Shown here: piece by piece, positions 35,749 to 64,000 of the stretch
Layout of the letters: the number at the start of each line of letters is the position of its first letter
Position numbering within the stretch: position 1 is the first letter of the stretch
Origin: Promethearchaeota archaeon
Lineage (GTDB): Archaea; Asgardarchaeota; Lokiarchaeia; Sigyniarchaeales; SOKP01
NCBI GenBank assembly: GCA_048939995.1
Contig: JBHLOY010000003.1
Coordinates: forward strand, 256,001-320,000
Length of the DNA: 64,000 nucleotides
Reading direction: 5' to 3'
The notes under the pieces: model-generated
Seen by the model: only the letters and a program-made list of their open reading frames with translations
What the model was told of the DNA's origin: nothing
Database searches by the model: none
Translations under genes and position numbers: made by a program

Positions 35749-36564
35749 TTAGCCCAAACTCTCCCAAAATTTAGGAGGAGGGTGATTAGTGTTTTTATTT
35801 ACTCGAGTGTCATGATAACAACAATCGCAACAATTATCCCCTTGCATTATTGTTTTTGTTCTTGTTAAAGTAAACTCGGGATTATAGTTTTTTACTTGCA
35901 CAAGATCTTGATAACACATCATAGAGAAGCAAAGCTCTTTATCATATCCCTGTTGAAGCAATTCCTCTGCCCATCTGCATTTGTTAATTTTTAAAATCAT
36001 TTTATCCTTGTCAGTTATCATTATAGTTCCTTTATGGGCTTGCCATTCTTTATTAATCTTCTTAAAATAATCAATTAAATCCTCAAGACTATTATAATAA
36101 TTATCTGGATTACGTAGGCTCTTGATATGTCGAGTAATAAAATCCTTTATAAAATTGATGGCTTCTTCTCTTGAAATGACATTCAATAATGAATTTGCTT
36201 GTAAGTAATCAAAATTGGTATACGTCTTGACAAGATCCCCCACATCGACACTTACCTCTTCATCAATAGGAGAATTCTGATATTTGGGATAATTCAGTAA
36301 GTTTAATATTTTATTGATGCTTTTATTGAGTAGTAGAGGATTTTTCTGATATATTTCATTCTCGCTATCTATAGAAATTCCATAATCTAGATTTATCTCA
36401 CATTGTGAAATTACTTCTTCCATATATTTATTCATTAAATCAGGTAATTCTTTTTGAATGTGATGTAAAAACTCTGCAAATCCAGCTAAATTATTATTTA
36501 TTATTTCTTTTATTTTTAGTCTTCTGGTTGCCTTCTCATTATAGATGTACTCATCTTTTTCCAT
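35749..36564 (-). CDS. L-2-amino-thiazoline-4-carboxylate hydrolase-like (ATC_hydrolase family) protein
   Basis: KCRWAE, MCYQD, LTRTKTIMQGDNCCDCCY. Confidence 0.78.
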   Translation of the reverse strand: MEKDEYIYNEKATRRLKIKEIINNNLAGFAEFLHHIQKELPDLMNKYMEEVISQCEINLDYGISIDSENEIYQKNPLLLNKSINKILNLLNYPKYQNSPIDEEVSVDVGDLVKTYTNFDYLQANSLLNVISREEAINFIKDFITRHIKSLRNPDNYYNSLEDLIDYFKKINKEWQAHKGTIMITDKDKMILKINKCRWAEELLQQGYDKELCFSMMCYQDLVQVKNYNPEFTLTRTKTIMQGDNCCDCCYHDTRVNKNTNHPPPKFWESLG

Positions 36565-36580: not shown

Positions 36581-37297
36581 TCAGAATTTATAGATTACCT
36601 CAAAGGGTAAATCATTAAAAATATCTTCCGCAAGTTTTTTAAATTCTCCATCTAAGGCTTTATATCCCCTACAAGCATAATTCTTTAGAAGAAATTTAGT
36701 TGGTAGTAACTCCGATACTAATTTTTTCAATCCGAGTAAACTTTTCTGATTATCGTTAATTCCTTCTAAAATTACGCTTACTACGATTAGTTCTCCTTTA
36801 AATGTTTTTCTAAATAACCTCACCCCTTCAATTAAATCTTCTAAATAAATTCCCTCGTGTTGTCTACATATCTCTTGAAATTCATTTGGAATAACACTCA
36901 CGAGTTCAATTAACATTAAATCACACAAAGAACAATCTTCTCTTACTTCCTTGCGAGAAAGGAGGGAACCATTCGTTGAAATTCCAATTTTTATGTTTGG
37001 ATACATTCTTTTTATTAACATTGAAAGCTGTTTAAAAGACGCATAAAGAGTAGGTTCTCCAAATCCCGTCATCCAAACAATATTGGGTTCTCCTTTTAGT
37101 TCAATATATTCTCTAATTTCTCTAAAAATATCTCCAGGAGGATAAAATTCTTTTCTTTCAATGGTTTTATCTGTTGTTGGACCAGTTCCACAATAAATAC
37201 AATTAAAATTACATACTTTGAAAGGGTTAAAATTTATAGATAAAACTTTACCAAATCTACTGTCTTCTTTAAATCCCTTAACAAATTTCCACCCCAT
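36581..37297 (-). CDS. Radical SAM Fe-S protein, module copy 1 (intact motif)
   Basis: SRFGKVL, CNFNCIYC, GFGEPTLY, STNGSLL, GIND. Confidence 0.9.
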   Translation of the reverse strand: MGWKFVKGFKEDSRFGKVLSINFNPFKVCNFNCIYCGTGPTTDKTIERKEFYPPGDIFREIREYIELKGEPNIVWMTGFGEPTLYASFKQLSMLIKRMYPNIKIGISTNGSLLSRKEVREDCSLCDLMLIELVSVIPNEFQEICRQHEGIYLEDLIEGVRLFRKTFKGELIVVSVILEGINDNQKSLLGLKKLVSELLPTKFLLKNYACRGYKALDGEFKKLAEDIFNDLPFEVIYKF

Positions 37298-37321: not shown

Positions 37322-39862
37322 TTAATCTTCATCTGAATTTAATTCAAATTGCTTTATCTTTAATAAATAATTGTTAGCTTTCTTTAACCAATGCTCCTTT
37401 TTCTCCATTTCACATAAACATGAATGGGTGTAATCCTTCCCTTGTTCTAACATTTGGATGGATAGGTCATATTCTTTAAGATGATAGAAACAAATACCCA
37501 TTTTAATGAAAGTTTGATATACAAAAAACCCATAAGGCTCTAGACCTATAGCTGTTTTAAATAACTCGATTGCCTTCTTATAATGTTTAAATATCATTAA
37601 TATTTCTCCATACGAATCATGGTAATTTCCATTGTTTGGCTCTAAACTTACTAATTTTTCAGCTAAATCAATTGATTCTTTCTCACGATCTAGATAAGCT
37701 AAACCATAAACCATACTATTTACTAAATCATTGTCATCATGATATAATTCCATGAGTTTACTTAAAATTTCGTATGATTCCTCATATCTCTTCGGATCAT
37801 TTTCATAATAACCCATCTTAATCAACATATATGCTTTTTTATGCAATATATGCTTACTCTTGTCAGGAAACATAGGTAAAATTTCAGCTATCAATTCTAA
37901 TGCTTCATCAAATCTTTTGCCTAAGTTATACCCAAGTATCTTATTGTAGTAATAATCAATAATTTTAGGTCTTAACTCAATTGCCTCATCAATTGCTTCA
38001 AATGCTTCTTCAAATTGTCTTAACTCAAATAAAATTATTGCTTTTAACTGATAACATCGTGAGATGTTTAATTCACTTGACTCGAGAGAGATTGCCTCCT
38101 CGATTTCTTTGACAAACTTGTCTAATTTAACCTGATTTTTGTCCCATTCGAAAATAGTATTATATCCCAGTACCATTGCTCTATTCAAATGAGAAATAGG
38201 ATGATCGGAGTGAAAACTTATACTATCCTCTGAAATTTTGAATGCTTTCTTAAAATCCCCTATTGATAAATGTGAAAAGCTAAGAATAAATAAAATTACC
38301 GGTATAAGATCATTTCGGCCTAATTCCTCCAATTTATCAAGTTGTTTATCTAAAATTTCAATTGCTTCTTTCAGGTTACTATATAGACATAGAACAATTG
38401 ACTTTAATATGTACAACTCAACTTTTTTTGCATCAGATTTAAGTGCAGAACCAATTAGTTCCAAAGCTTTGTTCACATCTTTATTATCAATACAAGACAA
38501 CACTTCTTTAAATAATGGTTTAATGTCTTTGATATAATATTCTGCTAATGCTTTCAAAACTTCTGGATATAAATAATACCTTACTTCTTTCTGCCCTTTA
38601 AGAGGATGATCCAAATCTTCTGATTCAATAGTTCTGAGCATTAATGGGATATTTTCATAAATAAATCCCTCTAACTTATCAGAAGCATCTACTAACTGTT
38701 TCTCAGTTTCAACTTTATAGGATAAATATTTGATGTATTCTGGTAAAAATTCTTTTAGAGATCCCTTTAAATTTTTATGAAATAAATCATTGCAAATATC
38801 ATCAATAATATCATCAATTAAGGTATACATTGTATAATAAGGATATCCACTTAATTTATTTAGATAAGTAAATTTCGTTACATAATCGTCAACAATAGCT
38901 CGAAGCACCCGCTCAATTTTTTCATCTGACTGAAAATAAAAATGCTTATCACCATCAAATTTCAAACTCCAAAATTTAATCGGATAGATCTCCTTCTCTA
39001 CAATCTGATGAATATGAAATTTCAAGATGATCTCTTCAATATCATATCGTAAAGCAAATTCATCTGGAGAAATATATCTTGGATATGAATCAGGATGATT
39101 TATCGAGAAAAATAGTAATAACTTCTTGAAATCTTCCTCATCATCTAGTGAATTCTGCACTTTAGCATAATCCATCTTTAATACATTATTTAAAAATCGA
39201 AATTTTACATCCTTATCCTCAATACTATACTTTCTAAAGAATTCTCGCGTCTTTTTGGTGATCTCTTCAATCCTTTTACTCTCTTCCTCTAAAATAGATT
39301 GTCGGTCAAGATCATATAATCGTAACATGCGAGAATACTCTATTTTTCCCGCTTCTGTAATCTTATATCGCTTATTATCTTTCTGGACATAACTATTCTC
39401 CATTAATAGATTTAAATTTTTTGAGAGTGATGATTGGTTTATATAAACAGGTGTATTCTCCCTAAGAAAATCACTCCATTTGCAGTAACTATTATTGTAT
39501 AACATCCATAAGATCCAATGATCATAATTCCTCCTTCTTAAAACCGCTTTGGGAGGATAATTCAATCTCCTCTTTGATTTTTTCCGACGCGATAATTCAT
39601 GATACCTCTCTCTACCGGCATTTGTAATTATATAGATACCTCTCTTGATATTCTCTATATATCCTTTACTTTCTAACCGATTCTTGTAATTTGAAAGGGT
39701 TGATTGACTAATACTTACTGGATCTTCAGTAAAATGAGACCATTCACACTCATTATTATTATATAACATCCAAAGTATAATAAGCTCAAAATTTCTCTTA
39801 CCCATAGGAGAATTAGATAAAATTTCTTCAGGAGGCAAGTTTACTTGCTCACTTTTACTCAT
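37322..39862 (-). CDS. Tandem winged-helix + TPR protein, module copy 1 (start probably MSKSEQ at 39862; track gives 39937)
   Basis: Two repeats of ILWMLYNN..C.WS.F...I.QS.LS..L..L..GY...Y.IT.AG; TPR C-terminus (EAFEAIDEAIELRP, GNYHDSYGEIL). Confidence 0.88.
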   Translation of the reverse strand: MSKSEQVNLPPEEILSNSPMGKRNFELIILWMLYNNNECEWSHFTEDPVSISQSTLSNYKNRLESKGYIENIKRGIYIITNAGRERYHELSRRKKSKRRLNYPPKAVLRRRNYDHWILWMLYNNSYCKWSDFLRENTPVYINQSSLSKNLNLLMENSYVQKDNKRYKITEAGKIEYSRMLRLYDLDRQSILEEESKRIEEITKKTREFFRKYSIEDKDVKFRFLNNVLKMDYAKVQNSLDDEEDFKKLLLFFSINHPDSYPRYISPDEFALRYDIEEIILKFHIHQIVEKEIYPIKFWSLKFDGDKHFYFQSDEKIERVLRAIVDDYVTKFTYLNKLSGYPYYTMYTLIDDIIDDICNDLFHKNLKGSLKEFLPEYIKYLSYKVETEKQLVDASDKLEGFIYENIPLMLRTIESEDLDHPLKGQKEVRYYLYPEVLKALAEYYIKDIKPLFKEVLSCIDNKDVNKALELIGSALKSDAKKVELYILKSIVLCLYSNLKEAIEILDKQLDKLEELGRNDLIPVILFILSFSHLSIGDFKKAFKISEDSISFHSDHPISHLNRAMVLGYNTIFEWDKNQVKLDKFVKEIEEAISLESSELNISRCYQLKAIILFELRQFEEAFEAIDEAIELRPKIIDYYYNKILGYNLGKRFDEALELIAEILPMFPDKSKHILHKKAYMLIKMGYYENDPKRYEESYEILSKLMELYHDDNDLVNSMVYGLAYLDREKESIDLAEKLVSLEPNNGNYHDSYGEILMIFKHYKKAIELFKTAIGLEPYGFFVYQTFIKMGICFYHLKEYDLSIQMLEQGKDYTHSCLCEMEKKEHWLKKANNYLLKIKQFELNSDED

Positions 39863-39956
39863 AACAATAACTCTTTTACGGTAATCTATTCCATAATATA
39901 TAATTAGTAAAAGTTCAATATAAGGTTTCTCGTTCACAAGTCGATATGAACATTAT

Positions 39957-40058: not shown

Positions 40059-40319
40059 ATGGTACAAGTATATGAAAAGCATGGAATAGAAGACCTATTA
40101 GAGGTTAAAGCATGTGTAGTAGAGTCGCTCCCTGTAGTAGAGGAATGCACAGAATGCAGAGAAAGTAAAGAGGAGCAGAGCAAATCGCGATCATTTTTCA
40201 ATAGACTTTCAAAAAAGAACGTTAATTCCAAATCAAACGCTAAAATTTTAGAGGAGCAAGTCCATATCGACAAGCTCAAGCGTGGACTTCCTATTTCAGG
40301 GAGATTTTATATGGGCTAA
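40059..40319 (+). CDS. 86-aa protein divergent from wH-TPR copy 1
   Basis: AGGAG RBS; CTEC; ends GLPISGRFYMG. Confidence 0.7.
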   Translation: MVQVYEKHGIEDLLEVKACVVESLPVVEECTECRESKEEQSKSRSFFNRLSKKNVNSKSNAKILEEQVHIDKLKRGLPISGRFYMG

Positions 40320-55308: not shown

Positions 55309-55659
55309 TCAAGTGTACATCCCATCTGGTGGAGGTTTGTAATACATATTTCTATAACTTCTACCGAATAAAAGTCTTAAAATTTCTTGTATCCGTAAAA
55401 AGTCATAATTTCCAAAAATATCGCTCATATCAATGTTTCGAGGGTCAAAACCTGCTTGATCATAGATTTGCCGCTTTATAGGGTCACTCAAGATATCGTA
55501 TGCCTCTTTTAATTCTATGAATTTATCCTTAGCTTTCGGATCTTTATTAAGATCTGGATGATATTTTTTTGCTAATTTTCGATATGCTATTTTAATTTCA
55601 CTTTCAGTAGCCTCTTTTTCAACACCAAGAATTTTATAATAATCTGCTTTTTTGTTCAT
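55309..55659 (-). CDS. Short J-domain protein
   Basis: [32 protein letters not shown]; no zinc finger or substrate-binding domain. Confidence 0.92.
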
Positions 55660-55798: not shown

Positions 55799-56128
55799 TC
55801 AAAATAATAAATCAAGAGATATATCCTCAGGAGAAACAACAAATAGTAACTTTTTATTACTTAACCAATATCCTATTAGATAACCTTCTGAGCTTTTAAT
55901 CGTCAGTTGCTTAAAATTACCATTGTTCGTTTCGGAAACTATTCTTCTAGCAGCAGATAAAATCGCAAGTGCTATTCCCGCAATTTTTACATGTTCAATT
56001 TCTTGAGAAAGAGTTGAATTAAGAGGCATCCCCTCATTTGAAACAATTAATGCCTCTTTTATTTCAGGAAATTTTAAATATAATTTTTTCAAAATTTTTC
56101 GATGGGAACGAGCTTGAAACAACCTCAT
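55799..56128 (-). CDS. Roadblock/LC7 domain protein
   Basis: IKEALIVSNEGMPL.S, QLTIKSSEGYLI. Confidence 0.85.
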   Translation of the reverse strand: MRLFQARSHRKILKKLYLKFPEIKEALIVSNEGMPLNSTLSQEIEHVKIAGIALAILSAARRIVSETNNGNFKQLTIKSSEGYLIGYWLSNKKLLFVVSPEDISLDLLF

Positions 56129-56257: not shown

Positions 56258-56914
56258 TTAAAATCTAAATGACACCTTGAATGGAAGATCGTGAAAAATC
56301 TCTTTAAGTTTGGTCTTAAATTCATCAGAGACTGACTCTAAATCTTTACCTGTAAAAACATTTACTGAAAAATGATCTGGGGTAATCTCTAGTAAATATT
56401 TCTTCAAGTCTCGAACTGTATCTAAATCATCATTTACTCCCTTGAAAAACATAGTATAAATTCTAAAATTCCCTTTAAATTCTTTTCTAAAAATTCTAAT
56501 TCCCTTTAAAATTTCTTGAACGTTAAAGAAATCAAAACAAATGCAAGATTTATGAAAATTCGAAGGAGTAACAGAATTTAAGTTAATTACTATTAAATCA
56601 CATATCAAAAGTGCCTTTCGCACTTTTTCATAATTAAAAAGAGAACAATTAATATAAACTCCCATTTTCTGATTCGGAAAACTCTCCTTAATCTTATTAA
56701 GTAAGCGATTGAATCCAAAAAATAGGTTGATATCATTAATGCCTTTTAACCAGATGTAATCGGGACTTTCCTTTTTAAGAAAATAATCCTTTAACTCACT
56801 AAATATCTCTTCAGTGGGATAATACGGAATCTGATTATCAACATAATCAAAATCTACCGGTAAAACCTTCCCAAATTTAGAACTTGTTTGGAGTTCTTTT
56901 AAATGCAGATACAA
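56258..56914 (-). CDS. Radical-SAM-fold protein lacking CxxxCxxC, module copy 2
   Basis: Aligns by eye with 36581-37297 (SKFGKVL, YP..IF.E, GI..FRK.FKG, GVND, DLPFKV) but lacks the cluster loop. Confidence 0.82.
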   Translation of the reverse strand: MYLHLKELQTSSKFGKVLPVDFDYVDNQIPYYPTEEIFSELKDYFLKKESPDYIWLKGINDINLFFGFNRLLNKIKESFPNQKMGVYINCSLFNYEKVRKALLICDLIVINLNSVTPSNFHKSCICFDFFNVQEILKGIRIFRKEFKGNFRIYTMFFKGVNDDLDTVRDLKKYLLEITPDHFSVNVFTGKDLESVSDEFKTKLKEIFHDLPFKVSFRF

Positions 56915-56950
56915 TTCATCACCAGTGCTAAAAATAATTCTTTAGAAGTT

Positions 56951-59917
56951 TCAATCTTCAGATTTTTTATCGTACAAATCTTTATGAAATGAACTCATTA
57001 TTTCTGCCATCTTTTCCATTTTTTTAATCGATTTTTGTGCTTCCTCAATATTTCCAAGCTTTTCATGGCATATACTCATTTTACGATAAGTATCAGATAT
57101 ATACCATGCTGTAGGATTAATTCTTTCAGCCTCTCGTAGTTTTTCTAGTGCTTCTTCATACTTTCCTGATTCAATTAAAAGTTCTGCATACGTATCATAG
57201 GAATTCCCATCTTCAGGATCGCAACTTATTAATGTCTCTGCTGCTTCAAATGCTTCATTCATCCTATTTAATCTTAATAACATATATGCCCTATTATTCA
57301 AAAGTTCTTTATTATCTGGAAATTGTTTTAAAATTTCGTCTATATGATTTAATCCCTTATTGTAATCTTGAAGTTTATAATATATTAATGATTCTAATTT
57401 ACCTATACAATATCTTTGTTCTGGAAATTTATTGGTAATAGATTGACTTATTCCTATAGCTTCTTTATCTTTACCAAGTGACATCATGAGTAAGACTTTA
57501 GTTTTATAAAAATCAAAATCCATTGGATTTAACTTTATAGCTTCTTCAATAGCATTCAAAGCTTCTTCATTTAATCCCAGATCTCGCAATATAAAAGCCT
57601 CAGATTGTAGATAAAGTGCTTTCTTAAAATTAATCTTTTCAATATTTAAAGCATTATTGATACTCTCTTTAAAGTCATCAATAGTCAGATCATTTAATTC
57701 ACCACTATATATCAATGAATAACCAAAAACAAGGGCTTTTGAAAGGTAAGATATAGAATAATCTTGATACTTAATTTGGCTGATATTGGCAAAATCTAAC
57801 GCTTCCTTGAATCTATTACGAGCAATATATGAATACACTAAAATTAATATCGTAGAAGTATCTATTAGAGGATTTAATCCCCAAGGGTCAATAACAAAAT
57901 TTAATTCCTCTTTAATTATCTTTTCTGCCTCTCTATACTTCTTTGTAATACATAATATCAAAGCTTTTAGGATTAAAAGCTCTTTATCCAATGGTTTTAA
58001 TTTAATTGCATTATTTATCACTTCAAGAGGTTCTTTAGGTGATCTTGTACAAACACCTTCTGTGCAAACTATGGCTAAAAATTTTGTTCTTAATAGAAGA
58101 ATATTGTTTGGGAACTCAGAAATGGCTTTATTAATTACTTTGAGACCTTCAAGTTCTTGATCTTTTTTTATTAAAATTTGAGCTTTTTGGGCTATTAATG
58201 AAATATTAAACGCATTCTGAATCCCTTCTTCAACTACTTTTAATGACTTGTCTAAGAAATCCATTAAAAAGTAAGTCATTGACTGTAATAAATAGCCAAT
58301 ATAATTTTGTGGAAATTCTTGGATTATATGGTTTGTTATTTCAATTGATTCTTCGAATCTATGACCTACTGTTTTAATAATATCATTAACTACCAAACTT
58401 TCTATCTTGTCTAAATTCTGACTTTTATCATTAAATAGATTAAAAGCTTCATTAATCTTCCCATTTTTAAGCATTTGTATAATTTGACTAACAAATTCAC
58501 GATTTGATGCTTTAAAACCCTCTATGGTTTCAATATACTCAATATAATTCAATTTGCTTAAATAGAATAGATCCATTGATTCGAAAATTTGATAATACAA
58601 TGTATAATTCAATTCAGGCTCTTTCTCTAGAGTATTAGAAGCCTTAGAAGAAAAGGTCTCAAACTCTGCCGAAATTGTCTGCCAGATAAGACTTTCTAAT
58701 TTAGTCTCATCAGTTATTAACTTCTTTTCAGTTTCAATCTTGTATGCTAAATATTTTATATAGTTCGGTAAAAATTTCCTTAGAGTATCCTTTAAATTAT
58801 CATGAAATAAGTGATTACAAATTTCACTTAAGATATTTTCAATTATATTTGAAATGGTTAATGCTGGTGCCTTTTTGTTTGTATTCTCATATAAATTATT
58901 CAAATAGGTATATCGAGTTATATAATCATCTACAATTGCTCTTAAAACTCTCTCAATTTTTTCGTTCACTTGGAAATAATACACTTTATTAGGTGAAACC
59001 TCTAATTTGAAGAACTTTATTTCATAAAATTCTTCTTCCACTATTTTATCTATGAAGAAATTCAACGTCGTTTTCTTTAAATTAAAATCACTAGAAAATC
59101 TTTCAGGTGAAATATAATCTGGATATTGATTTGGATGATTTATTGATAAAAATAATAAGATTTTGTTAAAATCTTCTTCCTCTTCCAATAGGGTCTCTAC
59201 TCGAGAATAGTTTAATTTCAATACATTATTGAGAAATCTAAACTTAATTCTATCATCCTCTATTCCATATTCTTCAAAAAATTGGGTGCTAAATTTGGTA
59301 AATTCTTGAATATGCTTACTCTCTTCTTCTAATATTGATTGACGGTCTAATTCATATTCTCTTAGAACGTTAAAATATTCTGACTTACCCAATGGAGTTA
59401 TTTTATACTCTCTATTTTCATTAATAACAAAACCATTATCCATTAAGTAATTTAGAGCTCTCGATAATGAAGATTGATTTATTTTATAGAGGATTTCTTC
59501 AAATCTAATATCTTCTAAAAAGTCGGACCATTTACAAGCTTCATTATTATAAAGCATCCATAAAATCCAATGATTATATTCCCTTCTCTTTAATATAACT
59601 TGGGGAGGGTAATTTAGCCCTTTAGGGCCCTCTCTTCCATATTGTGTTAATTCCTTATATCTTTCTATACCTTCCTGAGTAATCTTATAATAATTACGTT
59701 CAGGCTTAATTATAAATCCTTTACCAATAAGCTTATCTAAATTCTGCGATAACGTTGAAGCAGGAATCTCGAGATTATCATCTGAATCATCAGTAAAATT
59801 AGACCATTCACAATGATCCTTTCCGTAAAGATTATCACTATTATATAATTTCCAAAGAATAATATATTCTGCAGAATTATTTGCGATTTTTGCAATCTGA
59901 ATTTTGGTTTTACTCAT
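56951..59917 (-). CDS. Tandem winged-helix + TPR protein, module copy 2
   Basis: Shares LNYPP, HWILWMLYNN..CKWSDFL, LDRQSILEEESK, KFRFLNNVLK, EKIERVLRAIVDDY with copy 1; long TPR C-terminus. Confidence 0.9.
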   Translation of the reverse strand: MSKTKIQIAKIANNSAEYIILWKLYNSDNLYGKDHCEWSNFTDDSDDNLEIPASTLSQNLDKLIGKGFIIKPERNYYKITQEGIERYKELTQYGREGPKGLNYPPQVILKRREYNHWILWMLYNNEACKWSDFLEDIRFEEILYKINQSSLSRALNYLMDNGFVINENREYKITPLGKSEYFNVLREYELDRQSILEEESKHIQEFTKFSTQFFEEYGIEDDRIKFRFLNNVLKLNYSRVETLLEEEEDFNKILLFLSINHPNQYPDYISPERFSSDFNLKKTTLNFFIDKIVEEEFYEIKFFKLEVSPNKVYYFQVNEKIERVLRAIVDDYITRYTYLNNLYENTNKKAPALTISNIIENILSEICNHLFHDNLKDTLRKFLPNYIKYLAYKIETEKKLITDETKLESLIWQTISAEFETFSSKASNTLEKEPELNYTLYYQIFESMDLFYLSKLNYIEYIETIEGFKASNREFVSQIIQMLKNGKINEAFNLFNDKSQNLDKIESLVVNDIIKTVGHRFEESIEITNHIIQEFPQNYIGYLLQSMTYFLMDFLDKSLKVVEEGIQNAFNISLIAQKAQILIKKDQELEGLKVINKAISEFPNNILLLRTKFLAIVCTEGVCTRSPKEPLEVINNAIKLKPLDKELLILKALILCITKKYREAEKIIKEELNFVIDPWGLNPLIDTSTILILVYSYIARNRFKEALDFANISQIKYQDYSISYLSKALVFGYSLIYSGELNDLTIDDFKESINNALNIEKINFKKALYLQSEAFILRDLGLNEEALNAIEEAIKLNPMDFDFYKTKVLLMMSLGKDKEAIGISQSITNKFPEQRYCIGKLESLIYYKLQDYNKGLNHIDEILKQFPDNKELLNNRAYMLLRLNRMNEAFEAAETLISCDPEDGNSYDTYAELLIESGKYEEALEKLREAERINPTAWYISDTYRKMSICHEKLGNIEEAQKSIKKMEKMAEIMSSFHKDLYDKKSED

Positions 59918-60159
59918 AATTTGATTATTTTGCCTATGTTTCTCACTTAATTAATTTAAATATGAACTTCTATTTATATTTTATAGTCCGTTACTTCGTT
60001 CCAAACTATCCCGAACAAATGTACTCCGATCAGAAGTACGCATAAATAAACTAAATATAGAAGTATTTCTTAACTTTTAATAAGTGAAAAGAAGGATTTC
60101 TAAAAAAAAATAGTCTCCCAAAGAAAAGAACAATTCAAATTAGTGAGTGGAAAGAAAAA

Positions 60160-60528
60160 ATGAGCCAAAATGTCGCGATATCAAGATATACAGATTCATT
60201 AGCAGCTGTTGAAACCATTCTTGAAGATTATTGGAAACCTAAAATTATCCCTCTTGAAAGTTTGGAACAGAAGCCTAAAACTAAAGAAAATCTGCATGAT
60301 ACGATTGCGGCTCAAAAAAGTCTTACGTACACTATTACGTTAAATGTGACTATTTTAGTGAGTTCAATTGGAGGGCTCTTACTGTTGATAACAATTAGCC
60401 CGTTATTAATACCCTTTAATATAATAATAATAATGGCATTTGCATTGGTCCAAGCTTTAGTTATAATAAAAAGCGAGACTGAATGTATTATGAAAAAAAT
60501 TAAGAAGAGGATGAGTAGGACAAAATGA
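60160..60528 (+). CDS. 122-aa 2-TM protein divergent from wH-TPR copy 2
   Basis: Polar N-terminus, two TM helices, basic tail. Confidence 0.7.
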   Translation: MSQNVAISRYTDSLAAVETILEDYWKPKIIPLESLEQKPKTKENLHDTIAAQKSLTYTITLNVTILVSSIGGLLLLITISPLLIPFNIIIIMAFALVQALVIIKSETECIMKKIKKRMSRTK

Positions 60529-60653
60529 ATGAAAATAGTAAGGATGTCTTATATAAGGTCACTTATGGCGTTATAACTCTTGCTACTATTGTTATAGCCG
60601 TCTATAGTTTAATATTTTTTATTGATTCATTAATGATTGCTTTTTCAAGTTAA
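60525..60653 (+). CDS. 42-aa single-TM peptide
   Basis: MNENSKDVLYKVTYGVITLATIVIAVYSLIFFIDSLMIAFSS; ATGA overlap with the upstream stop. Confidence 0.55.
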   Translation: MNENSKDVLYKVTYGVITLATIVIAVYSLIFFIDSLMIAFSS

Positions 60654-60702
60654 ATTCTTTTCCAGATCCGTATTTTAACAGGCCACCTGAGTGAGGGAAA
60701 CC

Positions 60703-62949
60703 TCACTCTAGCCCTGTTTCTAAAAATTTCTTTTGGTTCTTTACTTTTTTAAATATAAGGATTGATACAATAAATAAAATACAATATAGAAACATCATGT
60801 TATATCCGGGCACTGTTTCATTGTCTTCATTGTCTTCTCCGTAATTGCAGAATTGATTATCTTTAAAAATATTTCCTATACAATCCAATTCTTTTACACA
60901 CTCAGTATTCCCAAAAATAATGTTTTCATAGATATAATTGTAATTACTATGATCAAGGAATATACTGCAGCTATTATTGTTTACAATGTTTCCTGATATA
61001 CTGTTGTAATTACTAAAATAAAGCTGTATTCCATACTGATTCTTGTTTACTATGTTTCCTAAAAAAGTATTAGAATGACTATAATGTAAGTAAATCCCAG
61101 GACCAGCATTATTGTTTGCAATTATTCCGGAAATTGTATTATTATTACAGTAGTATAATGACAGCCCTAATGAACAAAAAGAAAGAATTTGGGATAATAT
61201 CGTCGAGTTATTACAATTAACAAGAATAATTTGTCCTGCATTTACAAAATCATTTAATCCTAAATTAATTTCATTCTTGTAATAATATAGTGGTCTTCCA
61301 TTTACTAAATTTGTAGTATCTATATTATTGGAACTTAATTCATTTCTGGATCCATACAATCTTCCTAATCCGCACTCATTCATAATATTTCTTCTAAAAG
61401 TATTATTAAGGTTATAATATATAAACATCCCATATTGGCTATTGTTTATGATATTGTCAATAATTATACTATTCGTAGCAGAACCTAATTCTATTCCAAA
61501 ATTCTTATTATTAATTAGTTTATTTTGGGAAAAGAGGTTATCATCACCATACGATAAATATATCCCCTCAGTACTATTATTTATAGCGTTTTCCACTATA
61601 TCATTATGGTTGCAATTATATCCAAATGATATTCCACAATAATCTGCATATATAATATTTTTTAAAATCTTATTACGATCACTGCTCCATAAATCTATAC
61701 CAACGCCACAACCATCTAATTCATTATCTGAAATGAAGTTACCATGACAGTATCTCAATTCTATCCCATAAATGTTATTATTGTTTAAAATACTCCCTGA
61801 AATATTGTTTTGGTTGCTATAATAAAGCTTTATTCCGTACTGGTTATTGTTTAATGTGTTTCCTAAAAAAGTATTAGAATGACTATAATGTAAGTAAATC
61901 CCAGAACCCCTATTATTTTTTGCGATGATTCCCGAAATTGTATTATTCGTACAGTAGTATAATGATAGCCCCAAAGAACAAAAAGAAAGATTTTGGGATG
62001 ATACCATTGAGTTATTACAATTAACTAAAATAATCTGTCCTGCATTTAAAAAATCGTTTGATTCTAAATTAATTTCATTCTTGTAATAATATAATGGCTT
62101 TCCATTTACTAAATTTGTAGAATCTATATTATTGGAACTTAATTCCTCACTCGTTCCAGGTCCAAAGAAGTGTCCAAACCCGCATTCACTCATGATATTT
62201 TTTCTAAAAGTATTATTAAGGCTATGAGATAAGCTCATCCCCGAAAGACAACTATTAAGAATATTATCTAATATTACGTTATTCTCCGCAGAAACTAATC
62301 TTATACCTTCCTCCTTATAATTTACTCTATTTCCAGATACATTATTATTAGATCCAAAAATATGTATCCCTGCAATACCAATATTAACAACATTACCTAT
62401 AATTTTGTTCTTATTGCTATTAGCTAAATGTATGCCATAATCATTATTATTTACGTTGTTCTCTTTAATAGTATTATTATTACTATTCTCTAAGTTTATT
62501 CCTTTTCGGTTATATGAACAGTTATTTCTAATTACCATTCCATTATTAACTCCGAACAAGTTTATTCCCGCATCCTTGGTGTACCATTCACTGCCAGAAT
62601 TATAAATCGTGCAATTTTCAATTTTAAAATATACGTTAGAATTTTCAATAATGATACAGCTTCCTAATCCTCCACCATCTATTATTAAGTCTTCAATATA
62701 GTAAGGATCAGTAAATGTGCCTGAACCAGTGCAGTTGCCAGCATTTCTAAAAGCAACCCAGCCAGAATTATCGATAATGCGGATTCTTACAGAACTTCTG
62801 GAACTAATTAGATTTTCTAATCTTATTTCAGAGTTACCTGTATATTCATCCCTATTATCAAGGTGATAATTTAAATTGAAATTTACCAGAGAAAATAATA
62901 GAAATGTAACTCCTAAGGTTATGAAAATAACTTTTATTCTAGATTTCAT
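60703..62949 (-). CDS. NosD-like right-handed beta-helix surface protein with C-terminal PGY-TM-basic sorting tail
   Basis: GI.L..S.NN.I..N repeats; GSGT..DPY.IE; TNLVNG.PLYYY twice; VPGY + TM + KKVK. Confidence 0.88.
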   Translation of the reverse strand: MKSRIKVIFITLGVTFLLFSLVNFNLNYHLDNRDEYTGNSEIRLENLISSRSSVRIRIIDNSGWVAFRNAGNCTGSGTFTDPYYIEDLIIDGGGLGSCIIIENSNVYFKIENCTIYNSGSEWYTKDAGINLFGVNNGMVIRNNCSYNRKGINLENSNNNTIKENNVNNNDYGIHLANSNKNKIIGNVVNIGIAGIHIFGSNNNVSGNRVNYKEEGIRLVSAENNVILDNILNSCLSGMSLSHSLNNTFRKNIMSECGFGHFFGPGTSEELSSNNIDSTNLVNGKPLYYYKNEINLESNDFLNAGQIILVNCNNSMVSSQNLSFCSLGLSLYYCTNNTISGIIAKNNRGSGIYLHYSHSNTFLGNTLNNNQYGIKLYYSNQNNISGSILNNNNIYGIELRYCHGNFISDNELDGCGVGIDLWSSDRNKILKNIIYADYCGISFGYNCNHNDIVENAINNSTEGIYLSYGDDNLFSQNKLINNKNFGIELGSATNSIIIDNIINNSQYGMFIYYNLNNTFRRNIMNECGLGRLYGSRNELSSNNIDTTNLVNGRPLYYYKNEINLGLNDFVNAGQIILVNCNNSTILSQILSFCSLGLSLYYCNNNTISGIIANNNAGPGIYLHYSHSNTFLGNIVNKNQYGIQLYFSNYNSISGNIVNNNSCSIFLDHSNYNYIYENIIFGNTECVKELDCIGNIFKDNQFCNYGEDNEDNETVPGYNMMFLYCILFIVSILIFKKVKNQKKFLETGLE

Positions 62950-63026
62950 ATTTCGCTAGCAATTGGTATTTACCAATAATAAATATTCTAAGTGGCAATT
63001 TAAATCTTATCTTTCTATTAGAAATC

Positions 63027-63686
63027 TTAGAATGTGAATGAAACTTTAAAAGGAAGGTTTTTAAGAATATCTTTAGCTTTATTCTTAAATTCATCAGAAA
63101 TAGATTCAAACCCATTCCCTGTAAAAGTATTCACTGAAAAATGGTCAGGTTTAATATCCAACAAAAATGTTTTTAGGTCTAGCATATCGTTAAGATTATC
63201 GTTGACACCGTCTATGAGTATCGCATACACCCTAAAACGACCTTCAAACTCTTTTCGGAAAGTTTTAATCCCATCTAGGATAGCTTGAACATTTACTTCC
63301 TCATCACATACACAAGATTTAAAAAAAGTTAATGGATTTACTGTATTCAAATTAGTGACGATTAGATCACATTGGGAGAGTTCTTTACGAACTATTTTAT
63401 ATCGAAATAATGAACAATTAACATACACTCCCAATTTCTGGTTAGGAAATTCTCTTTTTACTCTTTTAAGCAATTCTTGAAATCCATAAAATAGTTCCAT
63501 ATTTTTGACTCCTTTTAACCAGATATAATCTGGTTTTCCCTTCTTTTTGAAATAATCTTTAATTTCAGAGAATATAGCCTCTACAGGATAAAATTGAATT
63601 GACTCCTCGTTAGATTTAAGATTAATTGGTAAAATTTTTCCAAATTTCGAATTAATTTGCATCTCTTTTAAATGTATATACCCCAA
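63027..63686 (-). CDS. Radical-SAM-fold protein lacking CxxxCxxC, module copy 3
   Basis: Close paralog of 56258-56914 (PDYIWLKG, FPNQK.GVY.NCSLF, PDHFSVN.FTG). Confidence 0.82.
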   Translation of the reverse strand: MGYIHLKEMQINSKFGKILPINLKSNEESIQFYPVEAIFSEIKDYFKKKGKPDYIWLKGVKNMELFYGFQELLKRVKREFPNQKLGVYVNCSLFRYKIVRKELSQCDLIVTNLNTVNPLTFFKSCVCDEEVNVQAILDGIKTFRKEFEGRFRVYAILIDGVNDNLNDMLDLKTFLLDIKPDHFSVNTFTGNGFESISDEFKNKAKDILKNLPFKVSFTF

Positions 63687-63704: not shown

Positions 63705-64000
63705 TTAATTATACATATCTTTTATTAATGGTAATGTCTTTCCTTTTACCTCATTCATTTTTTTAAAGCATTTTTTAGCTTCCTCTGTATTACCAAGATT
63801 TTTATAACATTCTCCCATTTTGCGGTAGGTTTCAAAAATATACCATCCTGAGGGATTGATTTCAATCGCTTTTTCAAATTTCTCTATCGCACTTTCATAT
63901 CTTTTCAGTTCCATCAAAATTTCTCCATAAGTATCATAAGAATTTCCTTCTTCGGGATCAATTTCTATTAATTTCTCTATTGTTTCAAGTGCTTCTTCTA
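63705..64000 (-). CDS. C-terminal TPR end of a third wH-TPR paralog (partial)
   Basis: EEALETIEKLIEIDPEEGNSYDTYGEIL...INPSGWYIFETYRKM matches copy 2 DPEDGNSYDTYAELL...INPTAWYISDTYRKM. Confidence 0.8.
   Translation of the reverse strand, partial: EEALETIEKLIEIDPEEGNSYDTYGEILMELKRYESAIEKFEKAIEINPSGWYIFETYRKMGECYKNLGNTEEAKKCFKKMNEVKGKTLPLIKDMYN

Follow-up and report, generated by a model that had tools for sequence, protein, structure and literature searches.

The window analyzed here, a stretch of 64,000 nucleotides (G000:C28:256001-320000) from a genome of 3.75 Mb with ~29% G+C, encodes three proteins of the radical S-adenosylmethionine (SAM) type, hereafter copies 1, 2 and 3, each of which is encoded directly behind a gene for a large protein with winged helix-turn-helix (wHTH) domains and a tetratricopeptide repeat (TPR) array (Table 1). 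Public relatives of these proteins are labelled Promethearchaeota (Loki-type Asgard archaea). An earlier note on this DNA had proposed that copies 2 and 3, in contrast to copy 1, are conserved pseudoenzymes from which the cluster-binding loop has been excised; the three peptide strings on which it drew are all located in the window sequence. As it stated, copies 2 and 3 are full open reading frames (ORFs) with a ribosome-binding site (RBS), the TTG start of each lying 4 nucleotides (nt) past GGTGA, and they have diverged from each other, being 60% identical, with 33-35% identity of either to copy 1 over the full length. At 218-238 amino acids (aa), the proteins carry one Radical_SAM domain and no further Pfam domain; neither RRE nor SPASM/twitch auxiliary-cluster domains were found. 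The Pfam model Radical_SAM (PF04055) scores copy 1 at 61.3 bits and copies 2 and 3 at 19.2 bits each, below the 29.5-bit gathering cut-off, and NCBIfam gives many weak radical-SAM matches for copy 1 and almost none for the other two.

In radical-SAM enzymes, the CX3CX2C motif, or a variant of it, that follows strand beta1 binds the [4Fe-4S] cluster, and a second motif, GGE, located where beta2 ends, binds SAM at its methionine amino group. Both motifs are affected in copies 2 and 3. In a MAFFT alignment, one gap of 19 columns removes CNFNCIYC together with its flanks, that is, all three cysteines, so that the in-frame loss of about 19 residues described earlier is exact. The CX3CX2C loop is gone in all 37 members of the clade to which copies 2 and 3 belong, and no other CX(2-15)CX2C pattern is present in them. 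In the divergent member P0091, the segment NPFKSC, with the first cysteine, is kept and is followed directly by QPKYYP, a fossil of the deletion event. The GGE-type motif, GFGEP in copy 1, has become GINDI or GVKNM in copies 2 and 3; genus g12 shows GIGDS or GITDS here, and divergent members have no glycine at all in this segment (KSPNE, TTPTS, QCSND, NLRSN); such variability, up to the loss of every glycine, indicates that the second canonical SAM-binding motif has been free to drift. The previous description of this change, in which G.GEP becomes WLKG, was a register error, for WLKG aligns with WMTG of copy 1 and the altered motif is the GFGEP that comes next. An earlier-branching cluster-bearing clade (L046 3983-7934; L041) already reads WLKG, followed by an intact GEP. 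With the CX3CX2C loop lost and GGE decayed, reductive SAM cleavage on a [4Fe-4S] cluster should no longer be possible, and, judging from sequence, canonical radical-SAM chemistry is excluded for copies 2 and 3.

The protein fold has outlived the motifs. At the level of sequence, a phmmer comparison of copy 1 with PDB sequences gave no match, and the family profile reached 3can only (E = 0.004). Modeled with AlphaFold2 on the basis of the family alignment, copy 2 obtains a predicted local distance difference test (pLDDT) score of 92 and a predicted template modeling (pTM) score of 0.88, its sole weak stretch being the shortened 13-residue beta1-alpha1 loop (pLDDT 64). In comparisons with Foldseek and VIA-align, this model matches radical-SAM barrels, namely, RlmN (Z 16.2), pyruvate formate-lyase (PFL) activating enzyme (PFL-AE; Z 15.7, 202 residues aligned) and, at Z 14-15, NifB, Mmp10 and viperin; the alignments with PFL-AE, RlmN, NifB and viperin span 190-213 residues. 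The model of copy 1 (pLDDT 95.4) finds the same entries at Z 17-20, with PFL-AE at Z 20.1 over 216 aligned residues. The order of strands and helices is identical in copies 1 and 2, the beta1-alpha1 loop measuring 32 residues in the former versus 13 in the latter. In the models, then, the partial (beta/alpha)6 barrel is kept and the cluster loop alone is excised; the shared structural matches and the common order of secondary structure elements bear out the expectation that the cluster-less proteins have the fold of copy 1. PFL-AE and other minimal radical-SAM enzymes (PDB 3c8f, 3cb8, 8fo0) show the same partial barrel over the whole length, are of similar size (~240 aa) and likewise have no SPASM or other extra domain; copies 2 and 3 differ from them in the absence of the CX3CX2C loop and of GGE, at 13-18% identity.

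The cluster-less proteins form a narrow group. With copy 2 as the query, 5.8 billion proteins yielded 27 clusters at 43-93% identity and 190-223 aa, all without the loop and all from Promethearchaeota-type metagenome bins, one of them labelled Thorarchaeota; the closest database relatives of copy 2 are P0006 (93%) and P0007 (86%). Four further divergent full-length cluster-less proteins (P0088, P0089, P0091 and P0092) and the partial P0098 emerged when 1.84 billion representatives were searched exhaustively with a profile; the remaining motif-less matches of this search are N-terminally truncated fragments that still read GSGEPTL. The ESM Atlas holds an exclusively archaeal, 57-member cluster named 'hypothetical protein'. 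When 400 genomes of the phylum were searched with a profile, the cluster-less form, with genes of 657-660 nt, turned up only in the genus of the window genome (g1) and in genus g12 of the same family, and the cluster-bearing relatives of ~240 aa are more widespread. Five g12 genomes (G180, G196, G197, G201 and G209; 88-96% complete) have the cluster-less gene as their sole family member at E <= 1e-10, which implies that this gene needs no close active paralog. By sequence, copy 1 and the 240-aa family as a whole are closest to UPF0026/COG0731, uncharacterized 'wyosine synthetase-like' proteins that are mostly 300-330 aa long, keep the cluster motif and are unlinked to wHTH-TPR genes.

In maximum-likelihood trees, for which the loop columns were dropped by a fill threshold, the cluster-less sequences lie on one side of a single branch (31/31 and, once the divergent members are included, 37/37), with a Shimodaira-Hasegawa-like approximate likelihood ratio test (SH-aLRT) value of 99. 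The clade that they form falls inside the cluster-bearing 240-aa family, with the clade of copy 1 as its sister group (95). The cluster loop thus appears to have been lost once, long ago, in one lineage, and copies 2 and 3 would be members of an undescribed clade of radical-SAM-derived pseudoenzymes.

These genes are maintained by selection. Nei-Gojobori ratios of nonsynonymous to synonymous substitution rates (dN/dS), computed for loci of the genome collection, have a median of 0.20 and a range of 0.07-0.47 in 39 cluster-less pairs limited to dS 0.1-0.8, as against 0.10 in seven pairs of cluster-bearing relatives. The proportion of nonsynonymous differences (pN) is below that of synonymous differences (pS) in 12 phylogenetically disjoint pairs, with Fisher p <= 0.0036 in 11 and 0.05 in one (L022/L029). 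For copy 2 and its nearest genome relative pN/pS is 0.23 (p = 6e-30), and for copy 3 and L006 it is 0.30 (p = 3e-26). The 37 intact members have diverged to ~40% identity with their frames still open, and, among the matches listed, broken copies number two versus roughly 45 intact. Both broken genes (G228:C23 and G230:C231) lack the first 56-59 residues, and the 4 kb around each contain no wHTH-TPR gene; they are orphans undergoing decay. With dN/dS well below 1 and disruption rare, the earlier assessment of the genes as conserved rather than decaying stands.

Which residues selection has kept can be read from the alignment together with the copy 2 model, whose numbering and strand positions are used throughout. 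A core of W55, P80, K83, N89, L112, G138, F146, G148, N161, D162, L170, P179, F199 and K200 does not vary within the clade and is found in copy 1 as well. In the closer part of the clade, the polar residues D21, K57, N89, N111, N113, N161, D162 and S183 are fixed at the C-terminal strand ends, which suggests that the ancestral cleft continues to serve for binding of some kind. The cysteines behave differently. The earlier note had pointed to a shared set of other cysteines (NCS, CDL and SCxC) and to a possible alternative metal site. These cysteines make up no clade-wide set: C90, of NCS, is found in 40 of the 55 cluster-less sequences; C124, the first cysteine of SCxC, in 28/55; and C126, the second, in 52/55 closer members, being absent from the divergent P0089, P0092 and P0098. 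C126 is new, active relatives having H, Q or P in its place, whereas C105, of CDL, occurs in 25 of 32 cluster-bearing relatives as well as in 51/55 cluster-less proteins, and is ancestral; it sits just before strand beta4, away from the C-terminal strand ends where the active site lies. An alternative metal site is therefore disfavored: none of the new cysteines extends to every part of the clade, and no set of three is kept clade-wide.

The most constant feature outside the protein itself is the neighboring regulator gene. Among genes with readable flanks, a homologous wHTH-TPR gene directly precedes 31/31 cluster-less genes and all 8 genes of the copy-1 clade, with at most 78 nt between the frames. 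The TPR proteins and their radical-SAM(-like) neighbors diverge in step, and the TPR array is longer by ~140 residues in the regulators that accompany cluster-less proteins. Deeper cluster-bearing clades are not directly behind a wHTH-TPR gene; in one of them, the clade with WLKG and intact GEP introduced above, a class-III aminotransferase gene adjoins and a convergent wHTH-TPR gene of 640 aa lies two genes away. Pfam matches in the TPR regulators comprise HTH_45, HTH_34 and Sso10a-type winged helices along with TPR_1, TPR_2, TPR_14 and TPR_19. The window genome encodes eight wHTH-TPR paralogs, three of which have a radical-SAM(-like) neighbor. Relatives of the copy 1 partner are 841-853 aa long and their matches begin at residue 21-45 of its 871-aa frame, so that its true start may be an ATG at ~39862.

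Table 1. Genes of the three cassettes in the window, and related loci elsewhere in the genome collection (locus handle given before the coordinates)
Feature	Coordinates	Strand	Description
Copy 1	36581..37297	-	Intact radical-SAM enzyme, 238 aa; CNFNCIYC, GFGEP; in the sister clade of the cluster-less proteins
Copy 2	56258..56914	-	218 aa; radical-SAM fold without the CX3CX2C loop; TTG start, GGTGA RBS 4 nt upstream
Copy 3	63027..63686	-	Cluster-less paralog, 219 aa; TTG start, GGTGA RBS 4 nt upstream
Partner of copy 1	37322..39937	-	wHTH-TPR, 871 aa from GTG; 24-nt gap to copy 1
Partner of copy 2	56951..59917	-	988 aa: two N-terminal winged helices, conserved middle domain of ~250 aa, C-terminal TPR array; 36-nt gap
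Partner of copy 3	63705..64000	-	3' end of a 984-aa wHTH-TPR gene that runs past the window (L055 1206-4160); 18-nt gap
Small ORF, copy 1 cassette	40059..40319	+	86 aa, divergent to the TPR gene; MVQVYEK...GRFYMG
Small ORF, copy 3 cassette	L055 4367-4582	+	Same small-protein family
ATC_hydrolase-like gene	35749..36564	-	Directly downstream of copy 1
MFS exporter, examples	L059 1027-2304; L038 6351-7637; L073 5746-7068		Also at 9 other loci
Broken copy G228:C23	L043 4001-4489		Genus g12; one stop (TAG)
Broken copy G230:C231	L044 3851-4327		Genus g12; one stop (TGA), at nearly the same place

Two further components recur around these gene pairs. A small ORF of 70-86 aa, with N-terminal MVQVLEK, central AK.HE..I.I..lK and a variable C-terminus rich in aromatic residues and arginine, is encoded opposite the TPR gene in 14 of the 21 cluster-less and 5/5 cluster-bearing cassettes with readable upstream DNA, 19 in total. 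Between G258 and the copy 3 cassette, this small ORF is more conserved than the adjoining large genes. Upstream of the TPR gene of copy 2 (window 59918-60528), tblastn detected no remnant of it; its place is taken by a gene for a 122-aa membrane protein (60160-60528), homologs of which sit further out, beyond the small ORF, in L058 and L070. The second component, an exporter of the major facilitator superfamily (MFS_1/MFS_3, 'transmembrane secretion effector'), is encoded downstream on the opposite strand, within ~2 kb, in 12/28 cassettes of both kinds.

Other neighbors are less regular. The ATC_hydrolase-like gene is kept in the cassettes closest to that of copy 1 and absent from the cluster-less ones, and the copy-1-type cassettes of G257, G258 and G265 have a second, more distant radical-SAM paralog in tandem; outside the window, these two kinds of gene are exemplified at L038 4787-5602 and 5607-6332. 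No downstream gene specific to the cluster-less cassettes is conserved. Downstream of copy 2 lie a Roadblock/LC7 gene (55799-56128, minus strand) and a minimal DnaJ-domain gene (55309-55659, minus strand); four other loci also have a Roadblock-family gene no more than 2 kb downstream of the cluster-less gene, and one has a DnaJ-like gene. Directly downstream of copy 3, positions 60703-62949 (minus strand) encode a protein of 748 aa with NosD/right-handed beta-helix repeats, which is internally duplicated and carries a membrane anchor at its C-terminus. Two functional assignments were considered and set aside. A role in defense was rejected, PADLOC having returned nothing for copies 2 and 3 and only weak pVip hits (34 bits) for copy 1. 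An activase of glycyl-radical enzymes, suggested by PFL-AE as the top structural match, was dropped, the C-terminal glycines of the small ORF not being conserved; no glycyl-radical enzyme turned up beside any copy, in analyses that included no search aimed at one.

The reading that we favor, at a probability of roughly 0.58, is that copies 2 and 3 are non-catalytic partners of their cognate wHTH-TPR regulators, probably acting through the ancestral substrate cleft; the unbroken synteny (31/31) agrees with a role as adaptor of the TPR protein. The tree and the synteny point to a history that began, in one family of Loki-type Asgard archaea, with a wHTH-wHTH-TPR regulator and, encoded behind it in the same operon, a minimal radical-SAM enzyme of the size of PFL activase; this operon was usually opposite the gene for a small protein of 70-86 aa and often near an MFS exporter. 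The beta1-alpha1 loop carrying CX3CX2C was then removed in one lineage by a single in-frame deletion, after which GGE decayed. Purifying selection maintained the barrel, its core and many of the polar positions where the strands end C-terminally, and the gene kept its place behind the TPR gene throughout. The resulting cluster-less protein would be a binding partner of the cognate wHTH-TPR protein, without radical chemistry, and its likeliest form may be an adaptor or co-receptor that tunes the regulator by keeping the ancestral substrate bound in the former active site, the candidate substrates being the tail of the small protein or a nucleoside-like ligand.

Several observations weigh against this proposal. 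Five wHTH-TPR paralogs of the window genome, encoded on contigs C37, C38 (two), C1 and C17, manage without a radical-SAM(-like) neighbor, so that the partner is accessory; the lack of the small ORF from the copy 2 cassette shows that it is no obligatory ligand in cis. The dN/dS of the cluster-less genes is about twice that of their active relatives, and this doubling could mean relaxed rather than redirected constraint. Finally, the polar residues fixed on the active-site face (D21, K57, N89, N111, N113, N161, D162 and S183) would fit a new, non-radical catalysis just as they fit binding.

This last point leads to the rival that the cluster-less proteins are still enzymes, either with non-radical chemistry or with a metal at a new site made of the remaining cysteines or polar residues. 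K57, Q82, Y87, N111, N113, C126, Y153, S183 and S196 are newly fixed on the barrel in the closer part of the clade, the replacement of H, Q or P by C126 among them, and purifying selection is compatible with catalysis. However, the divergent members that do without C126, and the patchy retention of C90 and C124, leave C105 as the sole widely kept cysteine, and this one is ancestral and off the active-site strand ends; a [4Fe-4S] cluster cannot be held by two cysteines, and the literature searched offered no precedent for a non-radical activity of this fold. We therefore consider continued catalysis unlikely. Many pseudoenzymes pair with active relatives, which they regulate or scaffold, and the cluster-less protein could, by the same token, be a structural subunit of an active radical-SAM paralog such as copy 1. 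Both kinds of gene lie within 27 kb in the window genome, and active and cluster-less paralogs coexist in G257, G258, G265, G203, G215 and G218. Against such an arrangement, the five g12 genomes noted above show, at E <= 1e-10, no family member but the cluster-less gene, and the constant neighbor is the TPR gene, not an active paralog, so that we give this possibility rather little credence, somewhat less than to a new catalytic role. That copies 2 and 3 are decaying remnants, pseudogenes still open by chance, is improbable in the extreme: the two truncated, stop-containing copies of g12 and the elevated dN/dS point that way, but so many intact members at such divergence, with dN/dS nowhere above 0.47, a conserved start and RBS, and strict synteny, speak for function, and the selection tests have already refuted decay. 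A partnership with the regulator, in which the barrel serves binding, thus remains our preferred interpretation.

The cluster-less proteins can be compared with two further kinds of known systems. Pseudoenzymes, such as pseudokinases and pseudophosphatases, are paralogs that lack an essential catalytic element, are kept by selection and are tied to a regulatory partner; copies 2 and 3 share with pseudoenzymes in general the loss of the catalytic element, the selection and the tie to a regulator gene. The cassette as a whole resembles a different arrangement, found in streptococci, where Rgg/SHP and the streptide-type radical-SAM ribosomally synthesized and post-translationally modified peptides (RaS-RiPPs) combine RRNPP-type receptors with radical-SAM RiPP operons. 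The RRNPP/RaS-RiPP loci of Firmicutes likewise bring together a regulator with HTH and TPR, a small ORF, a radical-SAM gene and an exporter. Here, in contrast, the regulator has a double winged helix, ~850-1000 aa and an extra middle domain, the radical-SAM protein has neither RRE nor SPASM, and the small ORF is 70-86 aa long; the likeness is taken as one in the way of working and not as homology.

Guided by this parallel, one may tentatively regard the set of small protein, wHTH-TPR receptor, radical-SAM maturase and MFS exporter as an archaeal cassette for peptide signaling or peptide modification, in one lineage of which the maturase became a non-catalytic co-receptor, its old cleft presenting or sequestering the tail of the small protein for the regulator. 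This more specific scenario seems less likely than not. If true, it would make the cluster-less protein the first described radical-SAM pseudoenzyme, an enzyme turned sensor in a putative cell-cell or self-signaling circuit of Asgard archaea. In the literature searched, the coverage of which is incomplete, we found no description of a radical-SAM pseudoenzyme, of a radical-SAM protein without the cysteine motif, of this cassette, or of links between Asgard archaea and RRNPP systems.

Radical-SAM proteins are normally recognized and annotated by the cluster motif. The cluster-less clade suggests that the radical-SAM fold can be reused without radical chemistry, the motif having been dropped, the barrel long kept and the gene fixed beside a regulator. 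Automatic annotation by the Joint Genome Institute (JGI) gives the name 'wyosine synthetase' even to some cluster-less members, the others being called 'hypothetical protein', and such names call for caution where the cluster motif is gone. The narrow range of these genes, two genera in the genome survey, both of uncultured organisms, limits the immediate reach of the finding. Within that range, the presence of both an active cassette and its inactive sisters in a single genome amounts to a natural experiment on what the ancestral enzyme does to, or together with, the small protein and the wHTH-TPR regulator. Studying these cassettes could offer a first entry point to regulation linked to peptides among Asgard archaea.

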